Below, piece by piece: positions 7,042 to 60,081 of a DNA stretch of 64,000 bases (position 1 is the stretch's first letter; each line of letters starts with the position of its first letter). The notes under the pieces are model-generated. The model was not told the DNA's origin. It saw only the letters and a list, made by a program, of their open reading frames with translations, and made no database searches. The DNA is taken from NCBI GenBank assembly GCA_947480335.1, contig CANKCB010000008.1, positions 10,741 to 74,740 on the forward strand. The letters run 5' to 3'. The DNA is from Gammaproteobacteria bacterium (GTDB lineage: Bacteria > Pseudomonadota > Gammaproteobacteria > Eutrophobiales > Eutrophobiaceae). A program made the translations under genes and the position numbers.

Positions 7042-7812
7042 ATGCATCTGGTAACATTTGATCCGTTTCGAACTCTTGGTTGTACCGATGTGCATTACAT
7101 CAAACCCGCGCAGCTGATGAACCATGTTGCCGAGATTGATGCGGCCGATGTCGTGCTGTTTCCGGATTATGCCGATGTAAACCTGCTCTGTCATGCGATG
7201 GGCAAACGAATTTTCCCCAGTCTGTCCAGTTATCAGCTCGGTTTCGACAAGATCGAAATGACCCGGGCGTTCCAGTTACGCTTCCCGCAACATGTACCAG
7301 TGACGCTGATGTTGCCAAATGAGCCGCGCTATCAGGCCCGGGTGCTTGAAAGTCTGGATTTTCCTTTTGTGGCCAAGCTGCCGCGCAGTAGCAAAGGTGA
7401 AGGTGTGTTCCTGATCAATGCCGAGCATGACTGGCATCACTACTGCAGCAAGACGACGATGTTATACGTACAGGAAAAACTCGACATCCACCGTGACCTG
7501 CGTATTGTCTGGATCGGTGACCGGGTGGTTTATACCTACTGGCGTGTGGCGGCACCGGGCGCGTTTCATAATAACCTTGCCCACGGTGGCACCATCGATT
7601 TGAACAATATTCCCGAAGCGGCGCTGACACTGGTCCGCGATATGGCAACCCGATTTGGTATTGACTATGCCGGATTTGATATCGCTATGGTTGGCGAACA
7701 CCCGTATATTTTTGAATTCAACCGACTGTTCGGGCTGGAAGGCTTGAATCAGGCCAGAATCAATACCGGTGAGATCATTCAAAAATATCTGCAACGCCGC
7801 GAGGGCGAATAG
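7042..7812 (+). CDS. ATP-grasp domain protein (RimK / glutathione-synthetase-like fold)
   Basis: 256 aa. ATP-grasp signature organisation (FPFVAKLPRSSKGEGVFLI..., YVQEKLDIHRDLRIVWIGDRV). Specific substrate unknown. Confidence 0.5.
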   Translation: MHLVTFDPFRTLGCTDVHYIKPAQLMNHVAEIDAADVVLFPDYADVNLLCHAMGKRIFPSLSSYQLGFDKIEMTRAFQLRFPQHVPVTLMLPNEPRYQARVLESLDFPFVAKLPRSSKGEGVFLINAEHDWHHYCSKTTMLYVQEKLDIHRDLRIVWIGDRVVYTYWRVAAPGAFHNNLAHGGTIDLNNIPEAALTLVRDMATRFGIDYAGFDIAMVGEHPYIFEFNRLFGLEGLNQARINTGEIIQKYLQRREGE

Positions 7813-7820
7813 TACTGTCT

Positions 7821-8738
7821 CTACACCAGTGCCTGTAAATGCGCCACCACGCTACTGGCCAATGCGGGCAGTGCATAACCTCCTTCCAGTAAAGAGATTA
7901 TTCTGTCCTTGGCATGGCGTTGTGCAAGGTTTCGAACTTCAGTGGTGATCCAATGGTAATCCTGTTCAAGCAGATTCAAACTCGCCAGCGGATCATCACG
8001 ATGTCCATCAAATCCGGCAGAGAACAGAATCAGTTCTGGTGCAAACGTGTCCAGTGCTGGTAATACGGTCGTTGTAACGGCCTTTCGAAACGTTGTGCCG
8101 TCGGTACCGGCAGGCAAGGGCACATTGATGATGTTGTCAGCGACCGGACCCGTACCGGAGTAGGGATACAATGGAGACTGGAAGGTAGAGCACAACAGCA
8201 CAGCCGGGTTATGGCGAAAGATATTCTCGGTGCCGTTGCCATGGTGTACATCAAAATCAACGATGGCGACCCGTTGCAGCGAATACTTCTGTAACGCATA
8301 GGCTGCACCGATGGCCACATTGTTAAAGATACAAAAGCCCATTGCGCGGTGACGCTCGGCATGATGGCCGGGTGGTCGGACTGAACAAAATGCCGCATGA
8401 TTTAGTCCGGACATGACCCGATCGACCGCGAGTATGGCCGCACCTGCGGCGCGTCGTGCCGCTGCCAGGGTATGAGGGTTCATTGTCGTGTCCGGATCCA
8501 GATCGACCATGCCCTGTGTGGGTGAGGAACGAAAGACAAAATCGATATGTTCCACAGTATGAGCCAGCGCCAGTTGTTCACGACTCGCCAGCGGGGCCTC
8601 AACGTATTCGAGTAAGGGTTCCAGTCCGGAAAGCCGTACTTGTTTTTGTATCGCTGCAAGTCGTAAAGGACTCTCGGGATGAGAGCTACCCATATCATGC
8701 AGCGCACAGTCCGGATGGGAGATAAAAGCCAGCGTCAT
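7821..8738 (-). CDS. histone deacetylase / acetoin-utilization (AcuC/AphA) family amidohydrolase
   Basis: 305 aa. FDVHHGNGTE zinc-binding motif, CSVRPPGHHAE, EGGY near C-terminus. Confidence 0.8.
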   Translation of the reverse strand: MTLAFISHPDCALHDMGSSHPESPLRLAAIQKQVRLSGLEPLLEYVEAPLASREQLALAHTVEHIDFVFRSSPTQGMVDLDPDTTMNPHTLAAARRAAGAAILAVDRVMSGLNHAAFCSVRPPGHHAERHRAMGFCIFNNVAIGAAYALQKYSLQRVAIVDFDVHHGNGTENIFRHNPAVLLCSTFQSPLYPYSGTGPVADNIINVPLPAGTDGTTFRKAVTTTVLPALDTFAPELILFSAGFDGHRDDPLASLNLLEQDYHWITTEVRNLAQRHAKDRIISLLEGGYALPALASSVVAHLQALV

Positions 8739-8920
8739 GAACAGGACTCCGTTAGTCTGTGCGGTACAGCGAGCATAACCAACGGCAGGATGTCATGCCA
8801 GCACAATTCGATGCGCTAGACCTTCCGGTTTGTCGCCAGAGATAATCTGCTTTTCTGGTTGTTTCGACTTCAGTACAATCTTGAGCCATAACCTACACCA
8901 ACCAATACAGGAAATAACTT

Positions 8921-9334
8921 ATGAGCGAATCCATTTCCGGCAGTTGTCTGTGTAATCAGGTCAAATTTACCGTGAGAGGGCCTTTCCAGTTGTTCGCCCT
9001 GTGTCATTGCTCCCGCTGCCGCAAGGCGACCGGTTCGGCGCATGCGTCCAATATTTTCACCCATGCCGAAAACATAGAGTGGCTGGCAGGTGAAGAACTG
9101 GTCCGACGTTATGAATTACCCACGGCTGAACGGTTTTCAAAATGTTTTTGTGCTGCCTGTGGTTCGCCTGTGCCCAGCCTGAGTCGAGATGGCAAGCGTC
9201 TGCTGATACCGGCGGGTAGTCTAGATGTGGATCCGGGTGTGCATCCGCAAGTACGGATTTTTCTCGCTGACATGGCGCCCTGGTATAAACATCTCGACAC
9301 AGCCAAATCTTTTGAGGGTGCGCCGGTTTTGTAA
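8921..9334 (+). CDS. GFA family protein (glutathione-dependent formaldehyde-activating / CENP-V-like Zn domain)
   Basis: 137 aa. CLCNQVKF...CHCSRCRKATGS Cys cluster typical of the GFA family. Confidence 0.7.
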   Translation: MSESISGSCLCNQVKFTVRGPFQLFALCHCSRCRKATGSAHASNIFTHAENIEWLAGEELVRRYELPTAERFSKCFCAACGSPVPSLSRDGKRLLIPAGSLDVDPGVHPQVRIFLADMAPWYKHLDTAKSFEGAPVL

Positions 9335-9341
9335 AGCCTGA

Positions 9342-11264
9342 CTAGGGCACTGCCTCCGGTTCGATTACGTCCTCCGCCAGAAAGCCACCGGACTGTCTGG
9401 CCCAGAGTTGCGCATACAAGCCCTTTGCGGCAACCAGTTCCGCATGCGTTCCTTGTTCGATGATGCGACCATTATCGACCACGACCAGTCGATCCAGTGC
9501 AGCAATCGTCGACAGGCGATGAGCAATCGCAATGACCGTTTTACCCTGCATCAGGGTTTCAAGGTTTTCACGTATCGCCGCTTCCACTTCTGAATCCAGA
9601 GCGGAGGTGGCTTCATCCATAATCAGGATCGGCGCGTTTTTCAATAATACCCTGGCAATGGCAATACGTTGGCGTTGCCCACCGGACAGCTTGATGCCAC
9701 GTTCACCCACATGGGCGTCATAGCCACGACGATCACGGGCATCCGAAAGTTCCGGAATGAACTCCTCAGCGCGTGCCTGTTTGGCTGCCTCGAACATTTC
9801 CGCTTCAGTTGCATTGGGTCGGCCATACAGGATGTTGTCGCGTATCGAGCGGTGCATCAGTGAGGTATCCTGCGTCACCATGCCGATTTGTTCTCGCAGA
9901 CTCTCCTGCGAAACCTGTGAAATATCCTGCCCATCAATGAGGATGTGACCGGCTTCGACATCGTAGAAACGCAATAACAGATTCACAAGAGTGGATTTGC
10001 CCGCACCGGAACGTCCGACCAGTCCTACTTTTTCGCCCGGACGGATGTTCAGTGAAAAATCATCTATGACGCCGCTGCCATTGCCATAATGAAAGCTGAC
10101 ATGATCAAAACGGATTTCACCCTGTTTAATCGAGAGCGCAGTGGCCTCGGGCTTGTCAGTGACATGACGGGGTCTGGCCAGCGTGGTTATGCCGTCTTCA
10201 ACCGTGCCGATGTTTTCAAACAGCGCCGAGGTTTCCCACATGATCCACTGCGACATGCCGAACAAGCGGATGACCGGTCCGATCGCCGTGGCAATGGCAC
10301 CGGCTGAAACCGCAGACAAGGTCCATAGATAGATGGACAAACCACTGACAGAAAAAATCAGCAGTGTGTTGATAATCCAGACCGAAATCACCAGCCGGGT
10401 GACCAGCCGCATCTGTTCATGGACGGTGTCCAGAAACCCGGTCATGCTGGCCTGTGCATAATCGGCTTCACGCCGGGTATGAGAAAACAGTTTGACGGTG
10501 GTGATGTTGGTGTAAGTGTCTACGATGCGTCCGGTCATTTCCGAACGTGCATCCGCCTGTCGGTTCGCAACTTCACCCAGCTTGGGTACAAAGTAATACA
10601 GTATGGCGGCATACAGAGAGATCCAGACCAGCAGAGGAATGGTCAGACGGAAATCAGAACCGGCGATCATCACAATCAGTCCGCTGAAATAGACAATCAC
10701 ATAGAGTAGTACATCGAGTAACTTCAGTACCGTCTCGCGTACCGCCAGCGAGGTCTGCATCAATTTGGTGGAAATTCTTCCGGCAAACTCATTCTGGTAA
10801 AACGACAGGCTCTGCCCAAGCAGATAACGATGAGCGAGCCAGCGTATGCTCATCGGGTAATTACCGAGCAAGGTCTGATGAATAATCAGACTGTGCAAAA
10901 ACACGGCTGTGGGCAAACCAATTACCACCATGATGGCCCACCAGACCAGTTGATCCCCCTTGTCCTGGATGAAACTGGCCGGATTTTCGGTGCCTACCCA
11001 GTCAATCAGCTTACCCAGAAAGGAAAACAGGGATACTTCCATCACCGCAATCAGGCCGGTCAGTATCGACATTATTAATAAATACGGTTCCATACCCCGG
11101 GTATAAAACCGGCAGAAGGCGAACAGCGTGGCTGGTGGTTGAACCGGTTCTTCGGTTGGAAACGGTTTAATCAGTTTTTCAAAAAAAGCGAACATATACG
11201 CTGGACAGAATCCAAACAGGGTGATCCATGGTTTTTTTAAGGGAAATCCGGGAAAAAACAGCAA
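9342..11264 (-). CDS. ABC exporter, fused permease + ATPase (MsbA / NdvA-like type I exporter)
   Basis: 640 aa. 5-6 N-terminal TM helices. Walker A GRSGAGKST, signature LSGGQRQRIAIAR, Walker B ILIMDEATSALD. Confidence 0.8.
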   Translation of the reverse strand: MLFFPGFPLKKPWITLFGFCPAYMFAFFEKLIKPFPTEEPVQPPATLFAFCRFYTRGMEPYLLIMSILTGLIAVMEVSLFSFLGKLIDWVGTENPASFIQDKGDQLVWWAIMVVIGLPTAVFLHSLIIHQTLLGNYPMSIRWLAHRYLLGQSLSFYQNEFAGRISTKLMQTSLAVRETVLKLLDVLLYVIVYFSGLIVMIAGSDFRLTIPLLVWISLYAAILYYFVPKLGEVANRQADARSEMTGRIVDTYTNITTVKLFSHTRREADYAQASMTGFLDTVHEQMRLVTRLVISVWIINTLLIFSVSGLSIYLWTLSAVSAGAIATAIGPVIRLFGMSQWIMWETSALFENIGTVEDGITTLARPRHVTDKPEATALSIKQGEIRFDHVSFHYGNGSGVIDDFSLNIRPGEKVGLVGRSGAGKSTLVNLLLRFYDVEAGHILIDGQDISQVSQESLREQIGMVTQDTSLMHRSIRDNILYGRPNATEAEMFEAAKQARAEEFIPELSDARDRRGYDAHVGERGIKLSGGQRQRIAIARVLLKNAPILIMDEATSALDSEVEAAIRENLETLMQGKTVIAIAHRLSTIAALDRLVVVDNGRIIEQGTHAELVAAKGLYAQLWARQSGGFLAEDVIEPEAVP

Positions 11265-11484
11265 TGTTTGGTATTGTAGCGTAAATACAGTATGAAAGCT
11301 GGTGCGATTAAAACTGTGGCAATTCGGGCATTGTTCAGAACGAATATCAGTTAGCCGACTGACTCAAATTGAGCAAAAAGCTCAGGTGGAACTTCCACAA
11401 ATTGTGATAGGTTTTTAAAAGGGAAAGTATATAATATCGGCCATTGTTAGCATTAACTGACCTGCAGGAAATTCCCTTATATAT

Positions 11485-14106
11485 ATGAAGTCTTCAGCAA
11501 CATCGGCGATGCTTGTTATCACCGTTTGCGCTATTTTGACGGTCTGTGTCTGGGCAGTATTAAACCAGCCGGTCATGGAACCCCCTTGGCCTGAAACCCT
11601 GCAAGGCGTTGCCTTTTCTCCCTATCATGAAAATCAGGACGCTGTCGCCGGTATTACGCCGAGCGCCGAAGAAATTGATGCTGACTTGACGATGCTGGAA
11701 GGTAAAATCCATGCGGTGCGTACCTATACCAGCGAAGGCGTATTCGCTCAGGTCCCTGAACTGGCGGCCAAGCATAAAATCAATGTGACGGTCGGAGCGT
11801 GGATAGACCAGCGCCTCAAACACAATGACGAGGAAATCGATCGCGCCATCAAGTTGTCGCAACACCGGAATGTGGTACGTGTGATCGTCGGTAACGAAGT
11901 GTTGTTGCGTAACGATGTACCGATCGAAAAAATGTTTACCTATCTGGATCGGGCACGCAAAAAGATTTCCAGACCGGTCAGCACGGCCGAAACCTGGCAT
12001 ACCTGGATACAATATCCGGAACTGGCTGATCATGTCGATTTTATTGCCGTGCATATTCTGCCGTTCTGGGAAGGTCTGGATGTGGCAGAGTCCGTAAAAT
12101 TCGTATCGGAAAAGATGGATCTGTTAAAGGCCACATTCCCCGACAAGGAAATCGTGATTGGTGAAGTAGGCTGGCCCAGCGAAGGACGTACCCGTTATAA
12201 CGCGGTCGCCTCGGAATCGAATGAAGCACTATTTTTGCGGCGTTTCTTCAAGTTGGCCGATCATGAAGACTATATCTATTACGTCATGGAAGTATTTGAC
12301 CAGCCCTGGAAAATAAAAATAGAAGGTGCCGTCGGTGCCTACTGGGGTATCTATGATGTCCAACGTCAGCCAAAATTCCCGTTCAATGAACCGATCGTCA
12401 GAATTCCGGAATGGCAAACTCTGGCCGGTGTATCCGTGTTTGTTGGCATCATTCTGCTTAGTCTATTTTCCTTTACCAGCCGTACAGTCAATACCGAGGG
12501 TAAGACTTTTCTGGCACTGATTGTCTATACACTCGTTACTGTGTCAGCCTGGGTGATTTATGACTACACCAACCAGTATCTGACCAACACCAGTATTGCT
12601 GTGGGTATTCTGATGCTGATTTGTATGCTCGGTATCATTCTGTGTATGTTGTCTGAAGCGCATGAGTGGATTGAAGCGCACTGGATCAGTGGACGTCGAC
12701 GTGTCTATATCTACAAGAATACTGAGACGGAAACCTATCCGAAAGTATCTGTGCATGTGCCGGCTTATAATGAACCACCGGATATGATGATCGAAACCCT
12801 GAATGCACTGGCGGATCTGGATTATCCAAATTTTGAAGTGATTGTGATTGATAACAATACCAAGGATGAAACGGTGTGGAAACCGGTTGAGGCGCATTGC
12901 GCCTTGCTGGGTGAACGTTTTAAATTCTTTCACGTGGATCCGTTGTCCGGGTTCAAGGCCGGTGCACTGAATTATGCAATGAAGCATACCGCCGCCGATG
13001 TCGAGATTCTGGCCTATATCGATAGTGATTATGTGGTCGATCGAAGCTGGCTGAAAAACATGGTGCCGGCTTTTAATGAGAGCAAGGTGGCGATTGTACA
13101 GGCACCTCAGGACTACCGTGATGCAAAGGAAAATGCATTCAAGGCAATGTGCTATGCCGAGTACCGCGGGTTCTTCCATATAGGCATGATCACGCGCAAT
13201 GATCGCAATGCGATTATCCAGCATGGCACCATGACGATGGTACGCAAGAGCACGCTGGATGAAGTGGGCGGCTGGGCTGAATGGTGTATCACCGAAGATG
13301 CCGAGCTGGGTCTGCGTGTATTTCAAAAGGGCTATGAGGCTCATTACACCTCGAACAGTTATGGTCGCGGACTGATTCCCGATACCTTCATCGATTACAA
13401 GAAGCAGCGACATCGCTGGGCCTATGGTTCGGTGCAGATTATCAAGAAACATGCACGTACACTGTTTTTACCCGGTGGCAGCAAGCTGTCTGCCGGACAG
13501 CGTTATCATTTCGTTGCTGGCTGGTTGCCGTGGTTTGCTGACGGCGCCAACCTGATATTCAATATGTTCGCCATTCTGTGGTCTGTCGGCATGATGTATA
13601 AACCACAGGTGTTTGAACCACCGTTGCTGGCATTCTCGGTATTACCGATTACCTTTTTCATGTTCAAGATGGCCAAGCTGTTTCATCTGTATCGACAGCA
13701 GATCGGTGCGAGTATGATCCAGACCATTGCGGCGGCCATTGCCGGATTATCACTGACCCATACAATAGGTCAGGCCATGTTGTACGGCTTGTTTACCAAT
13801 AATCAGCCATTTATTCGTACACCGAAACGTTCCAATCCGTCTGCATTAACCAGTGCGCTGACATCCGCCTATGAAGAGACACTATTGTTGATTGCCTTTG
13901 TGCTGGCAATCCTGACGCTGAAAACGGTACCGCACGTGGACAGTCCTGATTACCATATGTGGATAGCGCTGATGGGTATGCAATGCATACCCTATGGTGC
14001 AACCTTGCTGACATCATTGATTAGCGTCGCTCCGATTCCTTCCTGGCTGATTGGTCAGGTGATGGAGAAAAAAAGTAATCTGGCTGCCCAGCCGAGAAAG
14101 GGTTAG
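11485..14106 (+). CDS. bifunctional GH17 glycoside hydrolase-like + GT2 glycosyltransferase (NdvB-like cyclic beta-1,3-glucan synthase architecture)
   Basis: 873 aa. N-terminal signal/anchor, then GH17 motifs (VGNEVLL, GEVGWPS). TM segments, then GT2 domain (VHVPAYNEPPDMMIETLNAL, IDNNTKD, DSDYVVD, QAPQDY). C-terminal TM helices. Confidence 0.75.
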   Translation: MKSSATSAMLVITVCAILTVCVWAVLNQPVMEPPWPETLQGVAFSPYHENQDAVAGITPSAEEIDADLTMLEGKIHAVRTYTSEGVFAQVPELAAKHKINVTVGAWIDQRLKHNDEEIDRAIKLSQHRNVVRVIVGNEVLLRNDVPIEKMFTYLDRARKKISRPVSTAETWHTWIQYPELADHVDFIAVHILPFWEGLDVAESVKFVSEKMDLLKATFPDKEIVIGEVGWPSEGRTRYNAVASESNEALFLRRFFKLADHEDYIYYVMEVFDQPWKIKIEGAVGAYWGIYDVQRQPKFPFNEPIVRIPEWQTLAGVSVFVGIILLSLFSFTSRTVNTEGKTFLALIVYTLVTVSAWVIYDYTNQYLTNTSIAVGILMLICMLGIILCMLSEAHEWIEAHWISGRRRVYIYKNTETETYPKVSVHVPAYNEPPDMMIETLNALADLDYPNFEVIVIDNNTKDETVWKPVEAHCALLGERFKFFHVDPLSGFKAGALNYAMKHTAADVEILAYIDSDYVVDRSWLKNMVPAFNESKVAIVQAPQDYRDAKENAFKAMCYAEYRGFFHIGMITRNDRNAIIQHGTMTMVRKSTLDEVGGWAEWCITEDAELGLRVFQKGYEAHYTSNSYGRGLIPDTFIDYKKQRHRWAYGSVQIIKKHARTLFLPGGSKLSAGQRYHFVAGWLPWFADGANLIFNMFAILWSVGMMYKPQVFEPPLLAFSVLPITFFMFKMAKLFHLYRQQIGASMIQTIAAAIAGLSLTHTIGQAMLYGLFTNNQPFIRTPKRSNPSALTSALTSAYEETLLLIAFVLAILTLKTVPHVDSPDYHMWIALMGMQCIPYGATLLTSLISVAPIPSWLIGQVMEKKSNLAAQPRKG

Positions 14107-14158
14107 TTACACATCATTGCAGTTCCTGATGACCGGAGTCTTCGGTCAGGAGTGGCGT

Positions 14159-14737
14159 ATGCAAATGGATACCAACGAATCAGCTACACCTGCCTACGCC
14201 CAGATCCAGCTGGAGCTGAAAAACATCAACCAGTTGTTTCATTCAATGGATCCGTCCCCGTTTCGGGAAAAGGATCTGGATTTGAATGCTGAAGAGTTTA
14301 TTGTTTCCTGGGCCAGGGAGTTGCCTGACAGTGACAAGTTCCAGCTAAAAATTCATCTGACCGATCTGTCTGCCAGCAGTCGTGACAGTCGCGAGATTGG
14401 TGAAGCCGTAAGAAATTATTTCAATTACCGTGCCGATCAGTATGCATTGCGTAAACGTGAGCTGTTGCGTGAAGGCTGGCAAAATCTCGGCATTGGTCTG
14501 TCTTTTCTCGCGACCTGTCTGTTTATTGCCAGATCGTTATTACAGTTTGGCAATAGCGCCCTGATTGCGATTGCCCATGAAAGTCTGATTATCGGTGGCT
14601 GGGTGGCAATGTGGCGGCCTATGCAAATATTTCTGTATGACCGATGGCCGATCAGCCGTATGCAAACCTTGTATCAACGTCTGGGTAATATGGACGTGAT
14701 TGTGGTGAAAAAGGACAGTGAATCCTCCAGTTTGTAA
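14159..14737 (+). CDS. hypothetical protein with two C-terminal TM helices, downstream of the glucan synthase
   Basis: ATG at 14159 preceded by AGGAG. 192 aa. No recognisable family. Probably co-transcribed with the upstream gene. Confidence 0.4.
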   Translation: MQMDTNESATPAYAQIQLELKNINQLFHSMDPSPFREKDLDLNAEEFIVSWARELPDSDKFQLKIHLTDLSASSRDSREIGEAVRNYFNYRADQYALRKRELLREGWQNLGIGLSFLATCLFIARSLLQFGNSALIAIAHESLIIGGWVAMWRPMQIFLYDRWPISRMQTLYQRLGNMDVIVVKKDSESSSL

Positions 14738-14746
14738 GCGTACCAG

Positions 14747-16003
14747 TCATAACCAGCCGGGAACGATCAGGACCAGCCAGACCAGCAGTGGGCCGACCGC
14801 CACCACGATACCGCTGTAGATAAGCATTTGCCGGTAGAAACGATCCTTGTCTTTGTCCTGGGTGTTTGCTACCACCAGTGCGCCATTGGTTGAGAACGGA
14901 CTGACATCAACGATGGTTGAGGCAACCGCGATTGCGGAAACCACGCCTACTGCGCCTATGTGACCCTGCAACAGAAACGGTACAGCCAACGGGATAGTGG
15001 CGCCGAGCACGGCAACGGAAGAGGCAAACGCAGAAACGATACCACCGATATAGCAGAGCAATAAGGCGCCCAACAGCGGTATGCCGATACTGGTCACACT
15101 GTTGCCTGCCATTTCCACAGCGCCCACTTTTTGCAATACCGCAATATAGGTAATGACTCCGGTAATCAATAACACAGTAGACCAGCTCACCTGATCCACC
15201 GCATTTTTCTGTTCGTTGGGAGAGAGTAAAGCCAGAAACACGGCGACAGATATGGCCACTAATCCAACGTTCAGTTCAAAGGCCAGCGAGCCGATGCCCA
15301 ATACCACCAGACCAGTCAGGGTGCACCAGCGATGAAAGTTTAGTCCGCTGTTTGCAGCAGGCGCCGCGTTATCACCCGTGTCAGTAGTTTGTGCCGAGGC
15401 GTGTAATGCACGATGTCCACCGAAGTAGAAATAGATGGCAATGGCGATTAGCAGATTGATCAACAGGCTCGACATGAACAGGGTAAGTTCGTCACCCGGT
15501 AATTGGGCCTTGGCCACAACCTGATTGGTAATGCTGCCGTAAATACTGATTGGGGAAAAACCTCCGGCCTGGGCACCGTGGATCACCATCAAGCCCATTA
15601 ACAACGGGCTGATGCGATACTGATGGGCAAAGCGCAAGGCGATGGGGGCTATAATCGCAACCGCGCCAGGGCTGACCGCGCCCACACTGGTCAGGATGCC
15701 GGTGACAGTAAACATGATCCAGGGCATGGCGGCGATATGACCACGCACCAGCCAGACAGCCTTATGTACCAGCCAGTCTATCGTGCCGTTTTTCTGGGCA
15801 ATCGCAAACAGGTAGGTAATGCCGACCAGCGTGACAAACAGGTCGCCCGGAAACCCGGCGAAAATGTCCTTCGGTGCCATTTCTGCCAGTGCGCCGATTG
15901 CAAATGCCCCGACAAAGGCAAGCGCACCCATATTGATGGGCAGTGCGGTGGCTATGACAAACATGATGACAAGACCAGTAATGGCGGCTAATTCGATAGA
16001 CAT
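14747..16003 (-). CDS. polytopic permease, ion-transporter superfamily (GntP/CitMHS-like)
   Basis: 418 aa, about 11-12 TM helices, Gly/Ala-rich. Family assignment uncertain. Confidence 0.55.
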   Translation of the reverse strand: MSIELAAITGLVIMFVIATALPINMGALAFVGAFAIGALAEMAPKDIFAGFPGDLFVTLVGITYLFAIAQKNGTIDWLVHKAVWLVRGHIAAMPWIMFTVTGILTSVGAVSPGAVAIIAPIALRFAHQYRISPLLMGLMVIHGAQAGGFSPISIYGSITNQVVAKAQLPGDELTLFMSSLLINLLIAIAIYFYFGGHRALHASAQTTDTGDNAAPAANSGLNFHRWCTLTGLVVLGIGSLAFELNVGLVAISVAVFLALLSPNEQKNAVDQVSWSTVLLITGVITYIAVLQKVGAVEMAGNSVTSIGIPLLGALLLCYIGGIVSAFASSVAVLGATIPLAVPFLLQGHIGAVGVVSAIAVASTIVDVSPFSTNGALVVANTQDKDKDRFYRQMLIYSGIVVAVGPLLVWLVLIVPGWL

Positions 16004-16146
16004 GATTTGATCCCTCCCTGTGCGCTATTCTACCGATCTTTCTGATTATTAATAGAAGTGCCACGATGGCAGGGCAGGATACTTCCTGTCCGGGTCGCTT
16101 GTGCTATTATTTGCCTATATAGACCCATAATGTACACCGGGTCAGG

Positions 16147-16851
16147 ATGCAGGAGGAACTTGCTGTGGCCCAGGAAAGCACTTCAATTCAGACCAGCGCG
16201 GAATCAGTGACCGATGCCACTGACAATCTGGCGCTGGTCGAGACCATACTCTGGGAGAAATGTTGCGGGTTCTGGTTATTGCCGGAACATTTGCAACGAC
16301 TCAAGGCCTCTGCTGACCATTTTTCATTTGCGTATAACGAAAGCCGCATACTGGCGCAACTGGATGAGGTGGTGAAAAAGCTTAAATGCGATAGCCTGGT
16401 CCGGCTGGAGTTTTTTCGGGACGGCGTCATCAATCTGTCTACTACGCCCTCGAATGCGAATCGGGAACCGGTTAAAGCCTCTCCTGCCAGACAACCCGTT
16501 GATTCACTGAACGTGTGGTTGCGGCACAGTACCAGTCGACGCGAGCAGTATGATCAGACCATTGTCGGCATCACTGGTGTTGATGAAGTATTATTGTGGA
16601 ACGAGCAGGGAGAGGTAATCGGATCAACCACGTCGAATCTGGTTTTTGAACTGAATGGGCAGTACTACACCCCGCCGCTCGAATGCGGGGTGATGCCCGG
16701 AGTGTATCGGGCCAGCCTGATACAGCAAGGCCGCTTGCAGGAGCGCCGTATTCATTTGGATGAACTGGCGTCCTGCAACAGTATCTATCTGATCAACTCT
16801 GCCATCGGCTGGCGCGAAGTGAACCTGGTTGAGCCAAAGGTTACAGTCTAG
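16147..16851 (+). CDS. aminotransferase class IV fold protein (aminodeoxychorismate lyase PabC-like)
   Basis: 234 aa. Weak but consistent similarity to the PabC core (ILWEK..., LLWNEQGEVIGSTTSNLVFELNGQYYTPPLECGVMPGV). Overlaps the TonB receptor stop convergently by 4 nt. Confidence 0.5.
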   Translation: MQEELAVAQESTSIQTSAESVTDATDNLALVETILWEKCCGFWLLPEHLQRLKASADHFSFAYNESRILAQLDEVVKKLKCDSLVRLEFFRDGVINLSTTPSNANREPVKASPARQPVDSLNVWLRHSTSRREQYDQTIVGITGVDEVLLWNEQGEVIGSTTSNLVFELNGQYYTPPLECGVMPGVYRASLIQQGRLQERRIHLDELASCNSIYLINSAIGWREVNLVEPKVTV

Positions 16852-45841: not shown

Positions 45842-46317
45842 AAGAAAAAATTCACGAGTCAGGTATCGTGACCACTACGGTGGACAATCTGGTGAACTGG
45901 GCAAGAACCGGCTCCATGTGGCCGATGACGTTTGGTCTGGCGTGCTGCGCAGTCGAAATGATGCATGCCGGAGCCTCCCGTTATGATCTTGACCGTTTTG
46001 GTATCGTATTTCGTCCCAGTCCCCGGCAATCGGATGTGATGATTGTGGCCGGGACGCTGGTCAACAAGATGGCACCGGCCTTGCGCAAGGTGTATGACCA
46101 GATGCCAGAACCTCGCTGGGTTATCTCAATGGGGTCGTGTGCAAACGGTGGTGGTTATTATCATTATTCCTATGCGGTAGTACGTGGTTGTGATCGTGTC
46201 GTGCCGGTTGATATTTATGTACCGGGTTGTCCACCAACAGCAGAGGCCCTGCTGTTTGGTATCATCCAGCTGCAGAAGAAAATCAGACGCGGCAAAGTCA
46301 ATATTATTTCTGCCTAG
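45832..46317 (+). CDS. nuoB: NADH-quinone oxidoreductase subunit B
   Basis: 161 aa. [18 protein letters not shown] Fe-S (N2) ligands. Confidence 0.9.
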
Positions 46318-46334
46318 GAAGATACGTACCCATC

Positions 46335-47030
46335 ATGTCGGAAACGCTGGAACAACTTCAAAATCGTTTGACCGCTTGTTTTGGCGATAAAATCAGCGCA
46401 TCTATTATGCATTGCGGGGAACTCACGCTTGAAGTTGAAGCCGCCAATGCGATTGACGTATTCAGCAAGTTACGCAAGCTGGAAGAATTCCATTTTGAAC
46501 AGCTGATTGATCTTTGCGGTATTGATTATCAGCGATTTGGCAAGGCAGACTGGGAAACCGAAGATACCACCAGCACCGGTTTTAGTCGGGGCGTCAGCAA
46601 GGACATCTATAATGAGAACCTGAATAAGCCAGCACGGTTTGCTGTGGTATATCACCTGTTGTCACTGCTACACAATCGCCGCTTGCGAGTACGAGTATTT
46701 TTGCATAACAATCCGCCGCGTATTGAATCGGTTACCAGTATCTGGGCTTCTGCCAACTGGTTTGAGCGAGAGGCTTTTGATTTGTTCGGTATCCTGTTTG
46801 AAGGACATCCGGATCTCAGACGTATCCTGACAGACTATGGTTTTATCGGACATCCCTTCCGCAAGGACTTCCCGTTGGAAGGCAATGTGGAAGTAATTTA
46901 TGACCCGGAAAAGAAGCGTGTGGTTTATCAACCAGTCACGATCCGAAATCGTGTGTTGGTGCCGAAAGTGATACGCCATGACGACAGATTTACCAGCAAC
47001 CCGCCGCCCGCGGGAGCAAGTACCAAATAA
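46335..47030 (+). CDS. nuoC: NADH-quinone oxidoreductase subunit C (separate, not fused to D)
   Basis: Start at [12 protein letters not shown]. The track ORF starts upstream, inside nuoB. 231 aa. Confidence 0.85.
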
Positions 47031-47050
47031 TATTAGCGAGCCCGGAATTC

Positions 47051-48304
47051 ATGCCTGAAATCAGAAATATGACAATGAACTTTGGTCCACAGCATCCTGC
47101 GGCCCACGGTGTATTGCGTCTGGTACTGGAGATGGACGGTGAAATCATTGAGCGTGCCGATCCGCATGTAGGCTTGTTGCACCGGGGTACCGAAAAACTG
47201 GCCGAATACAAACCCTATAACCAGAGTATCGGCTATATGGATCGGCTCGATTATGTATCAATGATGTGCAATGAGCATGCGTATGTGTTGGCCATCGAGA
47301 AATTGCTTGGTGTGACACCTCCTATACGTGCGCAGTATATCCGTGTGATGTTCGATGAAATTACGCGTGTACTGAACCATTTGATGTGGTTGGGTGCGCA
47401 TGGCTTGGATATCGGTGCAATGACCATGTTCCTGTATTGTTTCCGAGAACGTGAAGACCTGATGGACTGCTATGAAGCGGTGTCGGGTACCCGTATGCAT
47501 GCTACCTATTATCGTCCAGGTGGTGTGTATCGTGATTTGCCTGGAACAATGCCGCAATACCAGACCTCAGTCTGGAAAAATGCAAAACAGGTTTCGGAGT
47601 TGAACCAGAACAGACAGGGGTCCCTGCTGGACTATATAGAATCGTTCACCAGTCGTTTTCCGGCGTGTGTAGATGAATATGAAACGCTGTTAACCGATAA
47701 CCGAATCTGGAAACAGCGTACCGTGGGCATAGGCGTGGTTACCCCGGAACGAGCATTACAACTGGGTTTCACTGGCCCGATGCTACGTGGTTCCGGTATC
47801 GAGTGGGACCTGCGCAAGAAGCAACCGTATGAAGTGTATAGTCAGATCGATTTTGACATTCCGGTAGGCGTGAATGGTGATTGTTATGATCGCTATCTGG
47901 TTCGAATCGAGGAGATGCGTCAATCCAATCGCATTATCAAACAGTGTGTGGACTGGCTGCGTAAAAATCCAGGGCCGGTGATACTCGATAATCACAAGCT
48001 GGTACCGCCACGTCGTGAAGAAATGAAAGACGATATGGAATCGTTAATTCATCATTTCAAACTGTTTACTGAGGGTTACTGTGTTCCGGAAGGTGAAGCA
48101 TACGCCGCCGTTGAGCATCCGAAAGGCGAATTTGGTATTTATCTGGTATCGGATGGTGCCAATAAACCTTATCGCCTGAAGATTCGTGCTCCCGGGTTTG
48201 TGCATTTGTCCTCAATGAATGAAATGGTCAAGGGACACATGCTGGCTGACGTGGTTGCCGTCATTGGTACGCAGGACATCGTATTCGGGGAAGTGGATAG
48301 ATAA
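47051..48304 (+). CDS. nuoD: NADH-quinone oxidoreductase subunit D
   Basis: 417 aa. [16 protein letters not shown] conserved N-terminus. Confidence 0.9.
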
Positions 48305-48305
48305 T

Positions 48306-48803
48306 ATGACTGATCAAGTAAAGCCTGTATTGTCCGAACATGCCCGCAAGGAGATTGATCACTGGCTGGCCAAATATCCGGAAGATCGTAAACAATCAGC
48401 TGTGCTTGCCGCCTTACGGGAAGTGCAGCATGAGAATAACGGATTTCTGACTACGGAATTGATGGACGCGGTAGCCGATTATCTGGGTATGCCGCAGATT
48501 GCTGTATATGAGGTGGCAAGTTTTTATTCGATGCTGGAGACCAAACCGATTGGTCGTCACAGTATTTCTATTTGTACCAACATCTCCTGCATGTTGTCCG
48601 GTTCGGATGCGGTTGTTGACTATACCGAGAAGAAACTGGGAATCAAAACCGGCCAGTCGACAGCGGACGGACGGTTTTTCCTGAAAAAGGAAGAAGAATG
48701 TCTGGCGGCCTGTTGTGGCGGGCCGATGATGATGGTGGATCATGTGTACTATGAAAATCTTACCAACGAAAAGATAGATGCAATCCTGGAAAAACTGGAC
48801 TGA
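48306..48803 (+). CDS. nuoE: NADH-quinone oxidoreductase subunit E
   Basis: Start at MTDQVKP (48306). 165 aa. CxxxxC...CxxxC [2Fe-2S] motifs. Confidence 0.85.
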
Positions 48804-50110
48804 TGGCCGAGATAAAACAAAATTTGGTTTGTTATGCCACACTTGGTGTGGAGCAGCCGTGGACGCTGGAAAATTATCATCGTGTAGGTGGTTATGACGC
48901 GTTGAAAAAAATTATCCGTGAAGGGATTACTCCGGAACAGGTGATTGAAGAGATGAAAGCCTCCGGTCTGCGTGGCAGGGGTGGAGCGGGTTTCCCGGCC
49001 GGATTGAAATGGAGTTTTATGCCGGCCAAGTTTGAAGGCCCGAAATATGTGGTTTGTAATTCGGATGAAAGCGAACCGGGTACCTGCAAGGACCGGGACA
49101 TACTGAGATTTAATCCGCACTCACTGGTCGAAGGCATGACCATTGCCTGTTATGCCATGCGTACCAAGGTTGGCTATAACTATATGCGTGGCGAGTTTAT
49201 GGATGAGCCGTTCGCCCGGTTTGAAAATGCACTGAAAGAAGCGTATACGAATAATTATCTGGGCAAGAATATTCTGGGTTCGGATGTCAGTATCGATATC
49301 CATGCCACGCTTGGAGCAGGTGCGTATATCTGTGGCGAAGAAACAGCGTTGCTGAATTCACTCGAAGGCAAGAAAGGTCTGCCGCGCTTCAAGCCACCGT
49401 TCCCTGCCAACTTCGGCTTATATGGCAAACCGACAACTATCAACAATACCGAAACCTTCGCCTCTGCTCCGTCGATTATACGTAATGGCGCCAAATGGTT
49501 TGCGGATCTGGGTGTGGCCAATAGTGGTGGAACCAAATGTTTTTCCGTCAGTGGCCATGTAAACAAGCCTGGGAATTTTGAAATTCCGATGGGTACATCG
49601 TTCCGGGATTTGCTTGAATTGGCCGGTGGTGTTCGTCATGGCAGAAAATTGAAAGCAGTGATTCCGGGCGGATCTTCTGTACCGGTATTGCCTGGCGAAA
49701 AAATGATGCAGGCCAATATGGATTATGATTCGATCAAGCAGGTTGGTTCGATGCTTGGGTCCGGTGCGGTCGTCATTATGGATGACACTACCTGTATGGT
49801 GAAAATGCTTTGCCGTATTTCGCAGTTTTATCATGCTGAATCCTGCGGCCAGTGTACGCCTTGTCGCGAAGGAACTGGTTGGCTGTATCGTATGCTGCGT
49901 CGGATTATGGATGGCAAGGGTGAACTGGAAGATATGGACAAACTGGTCGATGTGGCAAACAAGATCGAAGGCCGTACGATATGTGCGCTGGGTGATGCCG
50001 CTGCCTGGCCGGTTCAGAGTTTTATGAAACATTACCGGCATGAATTTGAATACATGATCAGAAACAAGGGTCGCAGCATAGTCGACAGCCCGGATTATAA
50101 AGCGGCTTAA
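48803..50110 (+). CDS. nuoF: NADH-quinone oxidoreductase subunit F
   Basis: 435 aa. [21 protein letters not shown] motif. [12 protein letters not shown] [4Fe-4S]. Confidence 0.9.
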
Positions 50111-50142
50111 CGAACAGCCGCAAAGATAATGAAATTATTTAA

Positions 50143-52515
50143 ATGACTGACGATACAATAACAATCGAAGTAGACGGCAAACCTCTGCAGGCCCGAAAGG
50201 GTCAAATGCTGATCGAGGTGACGGATGCGAACGACATTTATATTCCGCGTTTTTGTTACCACAAGAAACTGACTATCGCGGCCAATTGCAGAATGTGTCT
50301 GGTTCAGGTTGAGAAAGCGCCCAAGCCATTGCCAGCCTGTGCTACACCGGTGATGGATGGAATGAAAGTCCAGACCCGTTCGGCCTATGCGCGTGACGCA
50401 CAGAAAGCTGTAATGGAATTTTTGCTGATTAACCATCCTCTGGATTGCCCGATTTGCGATCAGGGCGGTGAATGTGAATTGCAGGATCTCGCGATGGGTT
50501 ACGGATCGGATGTTTCGCGTTATCAGGAAAAGAAACGTGTTGTTAAGGACAAGAATATCGGTCCATTGGTACAGACCGAAATGACACGCTGTATCCATTG
50601 CACGCGTTGTGTACGCTTTGGTGAGGAAATAGCCGGTTTGCGTGAATTGGGTGCAACCGGTCGCAGTGAATTTATGGAAATCGGTACCTATGTCGAAAAA
50701 AGTATGGTGTCCGAATTATCCGGCAACGTGATAGATGTTTGTCCGGTCGGAGCGTTGACATCAAAACCTTTCCGTTTTTCAGCACGTACCTGGGAAATGA
50801 CCCAGTATCCAGGCATTGCCCCACATGATGGTACCGGTTCAAATATCCACTTTCATGTGAAACATGATGTAGTAAAACGTGTGGTTCCGGCTGAAAATGA
50901 AGCTATCAATGAAGTCTGGCTATCTGACAGGGATCGATTCAGTTATGAAGGACTCTACAGCCAGGATCGCCTGACTGTTCCAATGGTCAAGGAAAATGGC
51001 GTATGGCGTGAAACGAGCTGGGAGGCGGCACTGGATCAGGTTGCCAGCCGTATGCAGAAACCAGTTGGTGCCACGGCCAGTCAATTAGGTGCACTGATCT
51101 CTCCGACAGCTACCTCCGAAGAAGCCTGGTTGATGCAGAAGTTAGTCAGGGCAGCTGGCAGTAATAATATTGATCACCGCTTGCATCAATCAGACTTTAC
51201 TGATGCAGCGCATGATCCGGCATTCCCCTGGTTAGGCCAGGCGATACCGGAACTGGAACAGCTCGACACAGTCTTGTTAATCGGTGCCTGGCCACGGAAA
51301 GAACAACCGTTATTAAACCTGCGTTTGCGCAAGGCGGCGTTACGGGGTGCCAATATCATGGTGGTCAATACAATTGACTACGATTTCAATTACAAAATCT
51401 CAGACAAGCTGATTTCCGATCCGGTCACTCTGATCCACGACGTTGCCGCAGTATTAAAAGCGGTGTCTGAAATTTCCGGAAACAAAATTGAATCGGGCAA
51501 GTTATTGGAAGCTGTAGTAGTCAATGACAAGCATCGCGCGATTGCGAGCAAGCTGGCTGCGGGTAAAAAATCAGCCATACTCGCGGGCAATCAGTTTATG
51601 GCACACACACAGTATTCTACATTGAGATATTTGGCTGGTCATATAGCCAGCCTGTCGGCTTCCAGTTTTGGATATCTGGGAGAATCGGCCAATGAGGCAG
51701 GCTGCTGGTTGGCTGGCGCAATACCCCATCGAGGTACCGGTGCTAAAAAGATCGATCAGCCAGGTTTGAATGCACGCAGTATGATGGAGCAGAAGTTATC
51801 CACTTATTTGTTGTTCAACATTGAACCGGAACTGGATTGTGCCAATGCGGCATTGGCCATGGCGAGTCTGCAAAATGCGGAAACGGTAATCGCTTTTACA
51901 CCCTATAAGTCAGCTTCTCTGTTGCAGGTAGCTAACATTATGTTACCAATTGCGATCTATGCAGAAAATGAAGGTTCTATGATTAATGTGGCTGGTCAGT
52001 CGCAAGTCTACTCAGCCTGTGTACCGGCTCAGGGTGAGGCACGACCCGGCTGGAAAATCTTGCGTGTGCTGGCCAATCGTTTGGGCGTAGCTGCATCGGA
52101 GTACCAGTCAGTCGAAGCAGTACGTAATGAACTCAATACAGTAATCTCTTCGGTAACACCGGATAACCGAGCAGACTGGGTCAGGCCGGAAGCTTTGCCC
52201 TCAGTACCGGGTGGAATATTGAGGACGACTGAAATCCCGATGAATTCAGTCGATACACTGGTCAGACGCGCTGAGGCCTTGCAACAGACAGCAGATGTCG
52301 CCGATGGTGCAGTACATATCAATAGCAATCTGGCTGGTAAACTCAGATTGAACGGTAGCAGCAAGCTTGTGGCGCAACAGCAGGGGAGTGCGCTGGAGCT
52401 GAATTATGTGCTCGACAACAGATTACCGGATAATACCGTACTGATTCAGGCTGCCCATCCCGCAACGTCGGCATTGGGTGCCTGGTTTGGTGAAATCACC
52501 CTGAGGAAACTGTAA
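50143..52515 (+). CDS. nuoG: NADH-quinone oxidoreductase subunit G
   Basis: 790 aa. N-terminal 2Fe-2S / 4Fe-4S Cys clusters (CYHKKL..., [13 protein letters not shown]). Confidence 0.9.
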
Positions 52516-52520
52516 AGCCA

Positions 52521-53633
52521 ATGTTAAACACATTGTTAAACACAGTTTTCGAATGGATACAGACCAATATCCTGATGCAAATCATCGGGGTTGTGGTGCC
52601 TGTGGCATTCCAGAATGAGGCCCTGCTGATTGCGAGTACAATAGTGAAGATAATTGCCATTATTGCGCCGTTGATGATCATCGTGGCGTATACCACCTAT
52701 GCCGAGCGCAAGATCATTGGTTACATTCAATGTCGTATCGGTCCTAACCGGGTTGGGTTCTTTGGTTTTCCCCTGGTTGGATTGGGGCAGCCTATTGCCG
52801 ATGCGGTCAAACTGATGTTCAAGGAAATTATCATTCCGACCGGCGCCAACAAACCCTTGTTTATTATTGCCCCGATATTATCGTTTGCTCCGGCGCTGGC
52901 CGCCTGGGCTGTCATACCGTTTGATGATGTGATGGTGCTTGCTGACATCAATGCGGCACTGATTTACATACTTGCACTGACCTCGCTGGCTGTTTATGGA
53001 ATCATCATTGCCGGTTGGGCTTCGAACTCAAAATATGCTTTTCTCGGCGCCATCCGCTCTGCAGCGCAGATTATTTCCTACGAAATTGCGATGGGATTTG
53101 CACTGGTGTGCGTACTGGTGGCAGCAGGCAGTCTGAATCTGGGCGACATCGTCGAGGCGCAAAGTGGCAGCGTATTAACGTGGTTCTGGATACCCCTGTT
53201 CCCGGTATTTGTTATTTACTTTATATCCGGTGTGGCAGAAACCAATCGCGCGCCGTTTGACGTGGCTGAAGGTGAATCAGAAATCGTGGCAGGGTTCCAT
53301 GTTGAGTATGGTGGTATGGCTTTCTCAATTTTCTTTATGGCGGAATATGCCAATATGGTACTCATTTCAGCCCTGGCATCGATCATGTTTCTGGGCGGCT
53401 GGCTGTCTCCGTTACAGGGAGTGCCGGTAATCGGTGAACCTTCACTTGGCTGGTTGTTGCTGAAGTCGTCATTTTTCCTGTTTCTGTTTTTATGGCTCCG
53501 TGCAACGTTCCCCCGATATCGCTATGACCAGATCATGCGTCTCGGCTGGAAAGTATTCCTGCCCATTACCATTGTCTGGATAGTCATTGTTTCAGCGATG
53601 GTGGTGATGAGAATACCACCCTGGTTTAACTAG
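52521..53633 (+). CDS. nuoH: NADH-quinone oxidoreductase subunit H
   Basis: 370 aa. [18 protein letters not shown] motif. Confidence 0.85.
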
Positions 53634-53657
53634 ACGATTCGGCAACGAGCTTAGATT

Positions 53658-54146
53658 ATGCAAAAAATCGGACAATATTTTCAGAGTTTGCTGTTATGGG
53701 AATTGCTGAAGGGCTTGCAATTAACAGGCAAGTATCTGTTCAAACGCAAGATTACTGTGCAGTACCCCGAGGAAAAAACACCGATGTCTCCACGCTTCCG
53801 TGGTTTGCATGCACTTCGTCGTTATCCCAATGGAGAGGAACGTTGCATTGCCTGCAAGTTATGCGAAGCTGTTTGTCCGGCTGTGGCCATTACCATTGAT
53901 TCTGAACAACGCTCAGACGGCACACGACGCACGACACGTTATGATATTGATTTGACCAAATGTATATTTTGCGGGTTTTGTGAAGAATCCTGTCCGGTTG
54001 ACTCTATCGTCGAAACCCATGTGTTTGAATACCATGGTGAGAAGAAGGGTGATTTATTGATGACCAAACAGAGATTGCTGGAAAACGGTGACAAGTATGA
54101 GCAGCAGATTGCGGCTGCACGTGCCAGTGACGCGATGTATCGATAG
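53658..54146 (+). CDS. nuoI: NADH-quinone oxidoreductase subunit I
   Basis: 162 aa. Two CxxCxxCxxxCP ferredoxin motifs. Confidence 0.9.
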
Positions 54147-54181
54147 TACGGAATACCTGATTAATAACGGCTGACTGACGA

Positions 54182-54790
54182 ATGTTTGAACTTTATATAT
54201 TTTATTTTTTTGCAGCGATGATGTTGCTGTCAGCGACGATGGTCATCACTGTGCGTAATCCGGTACATGCGGCCTTGTTTCTGGTACTGGCATTCTTCTC
54301 CAGCGCGACCGTCTGGCTGTTATTACAGGCCGAGTTTCTGGCGATCATTCTGATTCTGGTTTATGTCGGTGCCGTCATGGTTCTGTTCCTGTTTGTGGTG
54401 ATGATGCTGGATATCAATCTTGCCCGAATACGGGAAGGCTTTGCCCGGTTTTTGCCAATCGGGATAGTCGTCGCCGTGTTGATGGCTGTGGCGATGGTCA
54501 TGGCACTGAAAACCGTGTATCTGGATGCGGCACATCTTGATGTCTTTGCAGCGCCTGCGGCAGATTACAGTAACACCCGTGAACTGGGCATGGTTCTGTA
54601 CACAGAATATCTTTATCCATTTGAGATCTCGGGTGCAATCCTGCTGGTCGCCATAATTGCCGCCATCAGCCTGACCCTGCGTAATGGTAAACCCAACAAG
54701 ACCCAGAATCCGGAGGAACAGGTTCGGGTAAAGAGCAAGGACAGGGTGCGTATCGTCAAGGGTATGGATACGGAGCAAAAGACATCATGA
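54182..54790 (+). CDS. nuoJ: NADH-quinone oxidoreductase subunit J
   Basis: 202 aa, 5 TM. Confidence 0.85.
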
Positions 54791-55092: not shown

Positions 55093-55096
55093 ACGG

Positions 55097-57073: not shown

Positions 57074-57085
57074 ATCAGGGGGAGT

Positions 57086-58603: not shown

Positions 58604-58615
58604 TACAAAATTGTC

Positions 58616-60052: not shown

Positions 60053-60081
60053 TTTGATCCTTACAAGCGGCGGATAACAGA

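Follow-up and report, generated by a model that had tools for sequence, protein, structure and literature searches.

A stretch of 64,000 nucleotides (nt) of DNA from an uncultured gammaproteobacterium (assembly GCA_947480335.1, contig CANKCB010000008.1, positions 10,741 to 74,740; hereafter the window) carries a gene for an 873-amino-acid (aa) protein in which a GH17 domain is fused to a GT2 domain. The gene lies between a divergently transcribed ATP-binding cassette (ABC) exporter gene and a small open reading frame (ORF) that encodes a protein with two transmembrane (TM) helices, and the question raised by this locus is whether the three genes form one glucan-producing unit or whether the synthase acts alone. 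An earlier interpretation, made from the letters of the DNA alone (the sequence-only reading), had identified the fusion as an NdvB-type beta-glucan synthase and had suggested that the exporter might carry the glucan and that the small protein might be an accessory subunit. The three ORFs that it had placed here were all present at those positions. The analysis described below led us to conclude that the 873-aa gene very probably encodes a stand-alone NdvB-type synthase that makes periplasmic beta-1,3-glucan and has no dedicated partner genes.

The topology of the synthase was predicted from Kyte-Doolittle hydropathy. An anchor at residues 8-26 was followed by a 285-residue hydrophilic stretch, corresponding to the GH17 domain; three TM segments then preceded a 319-residue hydrophilic stretch, corresponding to the GT2 domain, and further hydrophobic segments were located towards the C terminus, at residues 709-727 and 792-810. 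The three TM helices would bring the chain back to the cytoplasm, and this predicted succession of anchor, 285-residue loop, three helices and 319-residue loop fits the published model of a periplasmic GH17 domain, a cytoplasmic GT2 domain and an internal channel (PMC10237404).

The GH17 domain was identified by comparison with a crystal structure. Residues 57-294 matched RmBgt17A, the GH17 beta-1,3-glucanosyltransferase of Rhizomucor miehei (4WTP), with E=2.6e-18 when the full protein was used and E=5e-19 when the domain was used alone. In the phmmer alignment the VGNEV motif of the synthase was aligned with VGSEV of 4WTP and GEVGWPS with SETGWPS, so that both glutamate motifs were accounted for; in the synthase VGNE starts at residue 135, GEVGWPS at 226 and GWPS at 229, and both E138 and E227 were invariant across an alignment of 14 homologs. 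The similarity is distant, and RmBgt17A is a soluble, single-domain fungal enzyme, whereas the GH17 domain described here is one part of a membrane synthase. Against PF00332, the Pfam profile for GH17, the score was 22.5 bits, compared with a cut-off of 28.2 bits (E=1e-4), and the match covered residues 218-298 alone, although a precomputed PF00332 match was found on most of the synthase homologs at 57-60% identity. Since the profile was below threshold, GH17 membership rests on the 4WTP match and on the homologs that bear PF00332, and at the level of sequence comparison these settle the homology.

The Pfam GT2 models PF13641, PF00535 and PF13632 scored 81-93 bits, far above their cut-offs (4.8e-26), and in the search of solved structures residues 341-750 matched BcsA (E=9e-22). 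Both the GT2 domain and the flanking TM channel were aligned, and all of the processive-synthase motifs lined up between synthase and BcsA: DSD with DCD, QAPQ with QTPH, TED with TED, and QRHRW with QRIRW. The sequence-only reading had taken QAPQDY to be the QxxRW-like motif; this segment aligned with QTPHHF of BcsA, and the actual QxxRW motif is QRHRW at residues 641-645. The fusion that it had described, with an anchor, both glutamate motifs, TM helices and a DxD motif, was otherwise confirmed by the hydropathy profile, the 4WTP and BcsA matches and the Pfam GT2 models; of the two profile searches that it had called for, the one for GT2 was unambiguous and the one for GH17 was borderline, the latter being backed by the 4WTP match. 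The synthase differs from BcsA in having the N-terminal GH17 domain, which BcsA does not have, and in lacking a C-terminal PilZ domain (PF07238), which was not found in the synthase by Pfam scan. No bcsB, bcsC or bcsZ genes were seen among the genes flanking the synthase, and the CelA/BcsA equivalog models of NCBIfam reached 120 bits against a cut-off of 699 bits.

The synthase was then compared with the NdvB protein of Pseudomonas aeruginosa (PA1163). A tblastn search of plasmid-labelled records showed 50.4% identity over 97% of the query to a coding sequence annotated as "ndvB: glycosyltransferase NdvB" (NZ_CP131792.1). Alignment with the NdvB sequence of strain PAO1, which was machine-read from the S1 File of PMC10237404 and may contain small reading errors, gave 49% identity over 845 residues with 9 gaps. 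The proteins were collinear from end to end, in agreement with the NdvB-type identity that had been proposed. They are of similar length (873 and ~870 aa), and have in common the order of anchor, GH17 domain, three TM helices, GT2 domain and C-terminal TM region, the VGNE/ExGWP and DxD/TED/QxxRW motifs, and the absence of a PilZ domain and of dedicated partner genes. They differ in setting: in P. aeruginosa the annotated gene order is tcdA, ndvB, dapE, with neither an ABC gene nor the small ORF adjoining ndvB, whereas here it is ABC gene, ndvB, small ORF, MatC-type gene. The host also differs, being in this case an uncultured gammaproteobacterium; a protein 100% identical to the synthase (P0121) was found in the metagenome-assembled genome GCA_947467065.1. 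The literature name for the pseudomonad gene, "Orphan", agrees with its tcdA-ndvB-dapE setting.

Among 8000 scored candidates, 7730 were homologous to the synthase at E<=1e-3, many of them labelled as GH17/cellulose-synthase fusions; with thousands of homologs, the synthase is a known kind of gene. The domain order, motifs, predicted topology, identity to P. aeruginosa ndvB and size of the family therefore identify it, as far as sequence can, as an ordinary member of the known NdvB/"Orphan" family. The gene can safely be annotated as an NdvB-type GH17-GT2 beta-1,3-glucan synthase, which has little significance beyond the correct annotation itself. The GH17 plus GT2 architecture is also common to NdvB of the Bradyrhizobium NdvB/NdvC/NdvD locus, which is responsible for a cyclic beta-1,3;1,6-glucan, and PMC10237404 gives the PF00332-PF13641 architecture for an NdvB-like protein of Bradyrhizobium BTAi1. 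Unlike that locus, the region near the synthase did not contain a gene for an NdvC-like second GH17 membrane protein.

The mechanism that we propose follows the one described for the family in PMC10237404 and the work cited therein (Mah 2003, Sadovskaya 2010, Hreggvidsson 2011). On this family model, the cytoplasmic GT2 domain would polymerise beta-1,3-glucan from UDP-glucose (PMC10237404), and the chain would be threaded through the BcsA-like membrane channel of the synthase itself. The GH17 domain, which the N-terminal anchor would hold at the periplasmic side of the membrane, would then cleave the chain and re-join or cyclise it. The outcome would be periplasmic, probably cyclic, beta-1,3-glucans with a putative role in osmoprotection and the sequestering of solutes, and a separate exporter would be unnecessary in such a scheme.

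The nature of the product is the part of this proposal for which an alternative has to be considered most seriously, namely that an enzyme of the same architecture makes a linear or branched beta-1,3-glucan (curdlan- or laminarin-like, and either periplasmic or secreted) rather than a cyclic one. Isolated GH17 domains of the Pseudomonas enzymes carried out cleavage and elongation transfer in vitro, and cyclisation by the full enzyme has been proposed, not demonstrated (PMC10237404). The absence of an NdvC-like gene near the synthase, together with that of an MdoB-like gene, for which no homolog was found anywhere in the window, is also consistent with a product that is not cyclic. However, the synthase is 50% identical from end to end to P. 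aeruginosa NdvB, and its catalytic and channel motifs are conserved. We therefore consider a non-cyclic product unlikely. The coordinates on which this part of the analysis was based are given below, together with those of the adjoining genes.

Features of the synthase and its surroundings. Positions are those of the window, except in the last line, where the loci of relatives are named.
Feature	Position	Strand	Basis
NdvB-type GH17 transglycosylase/GT2 beta-glucan synthase gene (ndvB), 873 aa	11485..14106	+	ORF, Pfam and PDB matches, P. aeruginosa ndvB alignment
N-terminal signal anchor, residues 8-26	11506..11562	+	Hydropathy score 2.71; one basic residue ahead of the anchor
GH17 domain, ~residues 36-300, inferred periplasmic	11590..12384	+	phmmer match to RmBgt17A (4WTP)
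GH17 catalytic Glu138 in VGNE	11896-11898	+	Aligned to 4WTP
GH17 catalytic Glu227 in GEVGWPS	12163-12165	+	Aligned to 4WTP
Three TM helices, residues 312-330, 341-359 and 371-389	12418..12651	+	Hydropathy; alignment with the TM region of BcsA
GT2 catalytic domain, residues 419-648	12739..13428	+	PF13641, 92.6 bits
GT2 motifs DNN 456 and QAPQ 539	within 12739..13428	+	QAPQ aligned to BcsA QTPH
GT2 motif DSD 513	13021-13029	+	Aligned to BcsA DCD
GT2 motif TED 603	13291-13299	+	Aligned to BcsA TED
GT2 motif QRHRW 641-645	13405-13419	+	Aligned to BcsA QRIRW
C-terminal membrane region, ~residues 676-850, BcsA-like channel half	13510..14034	+	BcsA alignment runs to residue 750; hydropathy
ABCB-type half-transporter exporter, adjoining gene, 617 aa	9342..11195	-	PF00664 and PF00005
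Intergenic region between ABC gene and ndvB, divergent, 289 nt, 38.8% GC	11196..11484	.	Sequence, GC content
Two-TM protein, 192 aa, adjoining gene	14159..14737	+	52 nt past the ndvB stop codon; AGGAG site; homolog lengths
MatC/CitMHS-type carrier	14747..16003	-	Next gene after the small ORF
PF00884 gene upstream of outgroup synthase	L169/L170 5385-6998; L171 287-1906; L174 1-1401	same strand as synthase

Conservation of the gene neighbourhood was assessed in two sets of loci. The first was obtained by an alignment-based scan with one genome per species and comprised 80 GH17-GT2 loci at 53-60% identity to the synthase, with flanks of up to 8 kb on each side, from Steroidobacteraceae, other Gammaproteobacteria and Desulfobacterota. 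The second comprised 85 loci bearing homologs of the small ORF, 80 of them from a metagenome scan (42-51% identity) and five others. Each set was the best-scoring subset of more than 590 matches. Neither a small-ORF homolog nor a full-length ortholog of the ABC exporter was found at any of the 80 GH17-GT2 loci; the ABC-like matches there were weak ones to the nucleotide-binding domain (unrelated ABC ATPases) and one 30%-identical exporter, located 3 kb downstream of the synthase in L064. When the flanking ORFs of the 80 loci were clustered, no conserved neighbour was revealed. The largest cluster, a TPP enzyme, was represented at 11 of the loci, and the others included glyoxalase, EamA, peptidase S9 and transglycosylase genes; these recurrent neighbours represent lineage-level synteny of lineage-specific housekeeping genes. 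In the second set, none of the 85 loci carried a GH17-GT2 gene. Beyond the immediate lineage, therefore, the ABC exporter and the small ORF were not syntenic with GH17-GT2 genes (0/80 and 0/85), contrary to what would be expected had the sequence-only reading been correct in linking them to the synthase.

Within the immediate lineage, the gene order varied among the relatives. In L175-L178 the ABC ortholog (74% identity) was part of a contiguous GSDH, ABC, HDAC arrangement on one strand in which GSDH and ABC were 116 nt apart; both the synthase gene and the small ORF were absent. In L173 (ABC 78%, synthase 75%) the order was HDAC-GFA-permease-ABC, ndvB, GSDH, with a gap of 127 nt between ndvB and GSDH and no small ORF. 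The order in L168 (ABC 83%, synthase 82%) and in the P0003 contig was HDAC-permease-ABC, ndvB-small ORF, GSDH-MatC, and in the window and L166 (ABC 100% and 99%, synthase 100%) it was HDAC-GFA-ABC, ndvB-small ORF, MatC; the HDAC-like and GFA-family genes that precede this region in the window were identified by Pfam. Orthologs of the ABC protein at 68% identity or more formed at least 120 clusters. There were five synthase clusters above 66% identity, all of them at 75% or more, and the next were at 66% or below.

Because the ABC gene occurs without ndvB in L175-L178, and ndvB without the small ORF in L173, ndvB is placed between backbone genes of greater age, and the presence or absence of the small ORF is independent of theirs. 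The simplest reading of these data is that the ABC, HDAC and GSDH genes are old backbone genes, with ndvB located between ABC and GSDH in part of the lineage only, and that the small ORF is a separate, further gain or loss at the locus. The gene of the divergent ABC exporter belongs to the older backbone of the gammaproteobacterial lineage, and ndvB now adjoins it on the side of the GSDH/MatC genes.

Several observations weigh against a stand-alone synthase with a cyclic product. The Pfam GH17 profile was below its own cut-off for this protein, and we infer cyclisation of the product from orthology. The two samples of 80 and 85 loci are best-scoring subsets and are not exhaustive. Where the synthase is at least 82% identical, the ABC-ndvB-small ORF block is intact while both outer sides change, with a GFA gene on one side replaced by an amino-acid permease gene and GSDH present or absent on the other; a functional link specific to the lineage would also yield such a block. 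Finally, ndvB and the small ORF could be co-transcribed, since they are 52 nt apart, the small ORF has a ribosome-binding site and no terminator-like site was found between them.

Another alternative is lineage-specific recruitment, in which ndvB acquired the gene of the small two-TM protein as its downstream neighbour in the sub-lineage of the window. The small ORF would be co-transcribed with ndvB and its product would modulate the synthase, for example in activity, chain length or localisation, whatever different or more general function the family may have in other settings. The two genes are on the same strand, the AGGAG site precedes the small ORF, and L166, L168 and the P0003 contig also have the two genes side by side, with small ORFs that are 72-100% identical; like the synthase, the small protein is predicted to be membrane-bound. 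However, the adjacency was limited to close relatives in which the wider synteny was also conserved, and so it carries little independent weight. Furthermore, the small ORF was absent from L173, it was linked neither to GH17-GT2 genes, at the 85 other loci, nor to any other conserved partner, and the fold search yielded generic helical hairpins only. Recruitment is thus distinctly improbable; if true, in this marine/environmental gammaproteobacterial sub-lineage, it would provide the first functional handle on the two-TM family.

That family was characterised further. The maximal small ORF starts at TTG 14117, but the ATG at 14159 has an AGGAG sequence ~7 nt upstream, and the lengths of identical or closely related proteins range from 188 to 197 aa; the AGGAG site and the homolog lengths therefore support the 192-aa reading. 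The protein had been described as having no recognisable family. This description held in that no Pfam or NCBIfam model was matched; the protein is not an orphan, since homologs were found in at least 4505 clusters at E<=1e-3, with a Pfam domain in none of the 120 listed. Conserved blocks were identified as NQLF-S-DPSPF-EK-LD--AEEF and ES--I-GWVAMWRPM--FLY--WP, with DPSPF..LD..AEEF and GWVAMWRPM..LY..WP as the invariant motifs. Members of the family occur in Gammaproteobacteria, Alphaproteobacteria, Acidobacteriota and Planctomycetota. In the AlphaFold2 (AF2) model (pLDDT 82.8, pTM 0.70) a small alpha/beta unit at the N terminus precedes a long helix that continues into TM1; TM2, a short helix and, at the C terminus, a strand complete the predicted structure. 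A fold search with the protein returned generic helical hairpins only. The small ORF marks a large, conserved family of membrane proteins for which neither Pfam nor NCBIfam has a model and for which a new family could be defined; this may be of modest use.

The contexts in which this family occurs gave no indication of a role in glucan synthesis. Clustering of the neighbours at ~83 small-ORF loci revealed no recurrent partner family, and the contexts varied, including an MFS transporter, PilZ/DnaJ, Cpn60-like and 157-aa unknown genes. On a metagenomic contig (L172 5388-7537) the start of a 60%-identical homolog overlaps the end of a 538-aa Cpn60/TCP1-family gene by 4 nt, which suggests that these two genes are translationally coupled. 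Plasmid copies were present in Bradyrhizobium, Rhizobium, Ensifer, Azospirillum and Variovorax and were labelled "hypothetical protein" where annotated; the Bradyrhizobium copy was located among holin-family, universal-stress and Mla genes and not among ndv genes. Homologs of the small ORF and genes with GH17 alone both occur on Azospirillum plasmids; no small ORF was found within 7 kb of the single GH17 locus inspected. Given the varied contexts, the absence from L173, where the synthase is 75% identical, and the lack of linkage in either direction (0/80 and 0/85), the suggestion that the small protein is an accessory subunit of NdvB was not upheld.

The gene structure of the ABC exporter also required revision. 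The 640-aa ORF reported earlier does exist as the maximal ORF, at 9342..11264, but it starts at TTG, and orthologs that are 68-83% identical are 609-619 aa in length. Since identical and related proteins in the database have 611-617 aa, the gene is probably the 617-aa one listed in the table. No NCBIfam equivalog cut-off was reached by the protein: the scores and cut-offs were 360/780 for the MsbA-related model, 348/733 for PRK13657, 342/602 for MsbA and 277/585 for chvA (TIGR01192), the top scores being about half of the cut-offs or less. Orthologs are labelled by their sources as generic "subfamily B multidrug efflux pump" proteins. A search of the PDB with the membrane domain was tried as a guide to the substrate and was set aside, since Sav1866 was the sole match (E=1.8e-7) and gave no clue.

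NdvA, ChvA and Cgt export the beta-1,2-glucan that is made by Cgs, a cytoplasmic synthase of ~300 kDa. Cgs is called NdvB in Sinorhizobium, and differs from the GH17-GT2 enzyme, with which it has only the name ndvB in common. The neighbouring ABC protein resembles these exporters in being a half-size, ABCB-type transporter with a membrane domain that precedes the nucleotide-binding domain; it differs in being below the family cut-offs and in not being linked to glucan synthases in the other genomes examined. The analogy is weak, because those exporters serve a cytoplasmic beta-1,2-glucan synthase, while the NdvB protein described here aligns with BcsA across the channel, and the GH17-GT2 enzyme has been modelled with its own channel delivering the chain to the periplasmic GH17 domain (PMC10237404). 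With models below cut-off, no linkage at 80 loci and 74%-identical orthologs in a GSDH-ABC-HDAC setting that lacks ndvB, the exporter does not appear to be dedicated to glucan, as had been suggested.

The adjacency of the three genes, the 289-nt intergenic region common to ABC and ndvB, the retention of the trio where the synthase is 82-100% identical even though the outer flanks differ, and the ranking of the PRK13657 glucan exporter as second-best NCBIfam match would all accord with a single module in which the synthase makes the glucan, the ABC protein exports it in the manner of NdvA/ChvA and the small protein is an accessory subunit, but such a module is barely credible, given that MsbA-type models scored alike, that the membrane domain matched Sav1866 alone among solved structures, that neither neighbour was present at the 80 ndvB loci or at P. 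aeruginosa ndvB, and that ABC occurs in the same backbone without ndvB while L173 lacks the small ORF. The three-gene glucan module is largely refuted by the synteny results, and labels that imply glucan export or an accessory function should be avoided for the two adjoining genes.

The AT-rich 289-nt region between the divergent genes presumably holds the promoters of both the ABC gene and ndvB. The numbers of consensus promoters and terminators found in a scan of positions 9000-16200 did not stand out from those in shuffled sequence (11 vs 7.8±2.9; 8 vs 6.7±2.5), and neither of the intergenic gaps contained any; there was no Rfam match across the whole window. In the repeat search of 11100-14800, short, chance-level pairs were the only repeats and no insertion hallmarks were found. 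The GC content of ndvB was 48.9% and that of the small ORF 47.2%, whereas the genes next to them were at 52-54% and the window as a whole was at 49.6%; recent transfer was considered on this basis, but the difference is too small to support it.

A different partnership was observed among more distant synthases. In the next-closest relatives (61-66% identity) a gene of 537-539 aa encoding a PF00884 "sulfatase"-family (MdoB/OpgB-like) protein lies on the same strand and ends 2-3 nt before the synthase start, and in L169 a diacylglycerol-kinase gene is located ~400 nt downstream. One protein of 1475 aa (P0161) has the synthase domains and PF00884 fused. An MdoB-like phosphoglycerol transferase has been proposed as a partner in PMC10237404, where one adjacency is known, from Desulfofustis glycolicus. 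The outgroup couplings and the fusion add examples to this single case and support the proposed phosphoglycerol-substitution step, which may be of modest use. No PF00884 MdoB-like homolog was found in the window or at the 80 genome loci.

A stand-alone GH17 gene was observed on plasmid AZO_p4 of Azospirillum lipoferum 4B (L181, 6983-8764), where it is annotated as a 593-aa "glycosyl hydrolase family 17 protein". The Azospirillum megaplasmid GH17 protein matched residues 9-373 of the synthase only, that is, the anchor, the GH17 domain and the first TM part, at 36-38% identity, and its predicted architecture is NdvC-like, without a GT2 domain.

The ABC gene showed a more consistent association with the HDAC-like (PF00850) gene. 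In L175-L178 the two genes are 55 nt apart on one strand (L175 8001-10808), and they are neighbours in all of the relatives examined; in the window (7821-11195) a GFA-family gene on the opposite strand intervenes. This pairing recurred in more of the examined loci than did that of ABC and ndvB. On its other side the HDAC-like/acetylpolyamine-amidohydrolase-type gene (7821-8738, - strand) is converged upon by a RimK-like ATP-grasp gene (7042-7812, + strand), with a gap of 8 nt.

The rest of the window is ordinary chromosome, an example being the nuo operon at ~46-60 kb. NuoG-like and NuoH-like genes are located at 50143-53633, and from 54 to 60 kb there is an AT skew of -0.18 to -0.24 over the nuoL/M/N-type subunits of this complex I operon (46000-60100).

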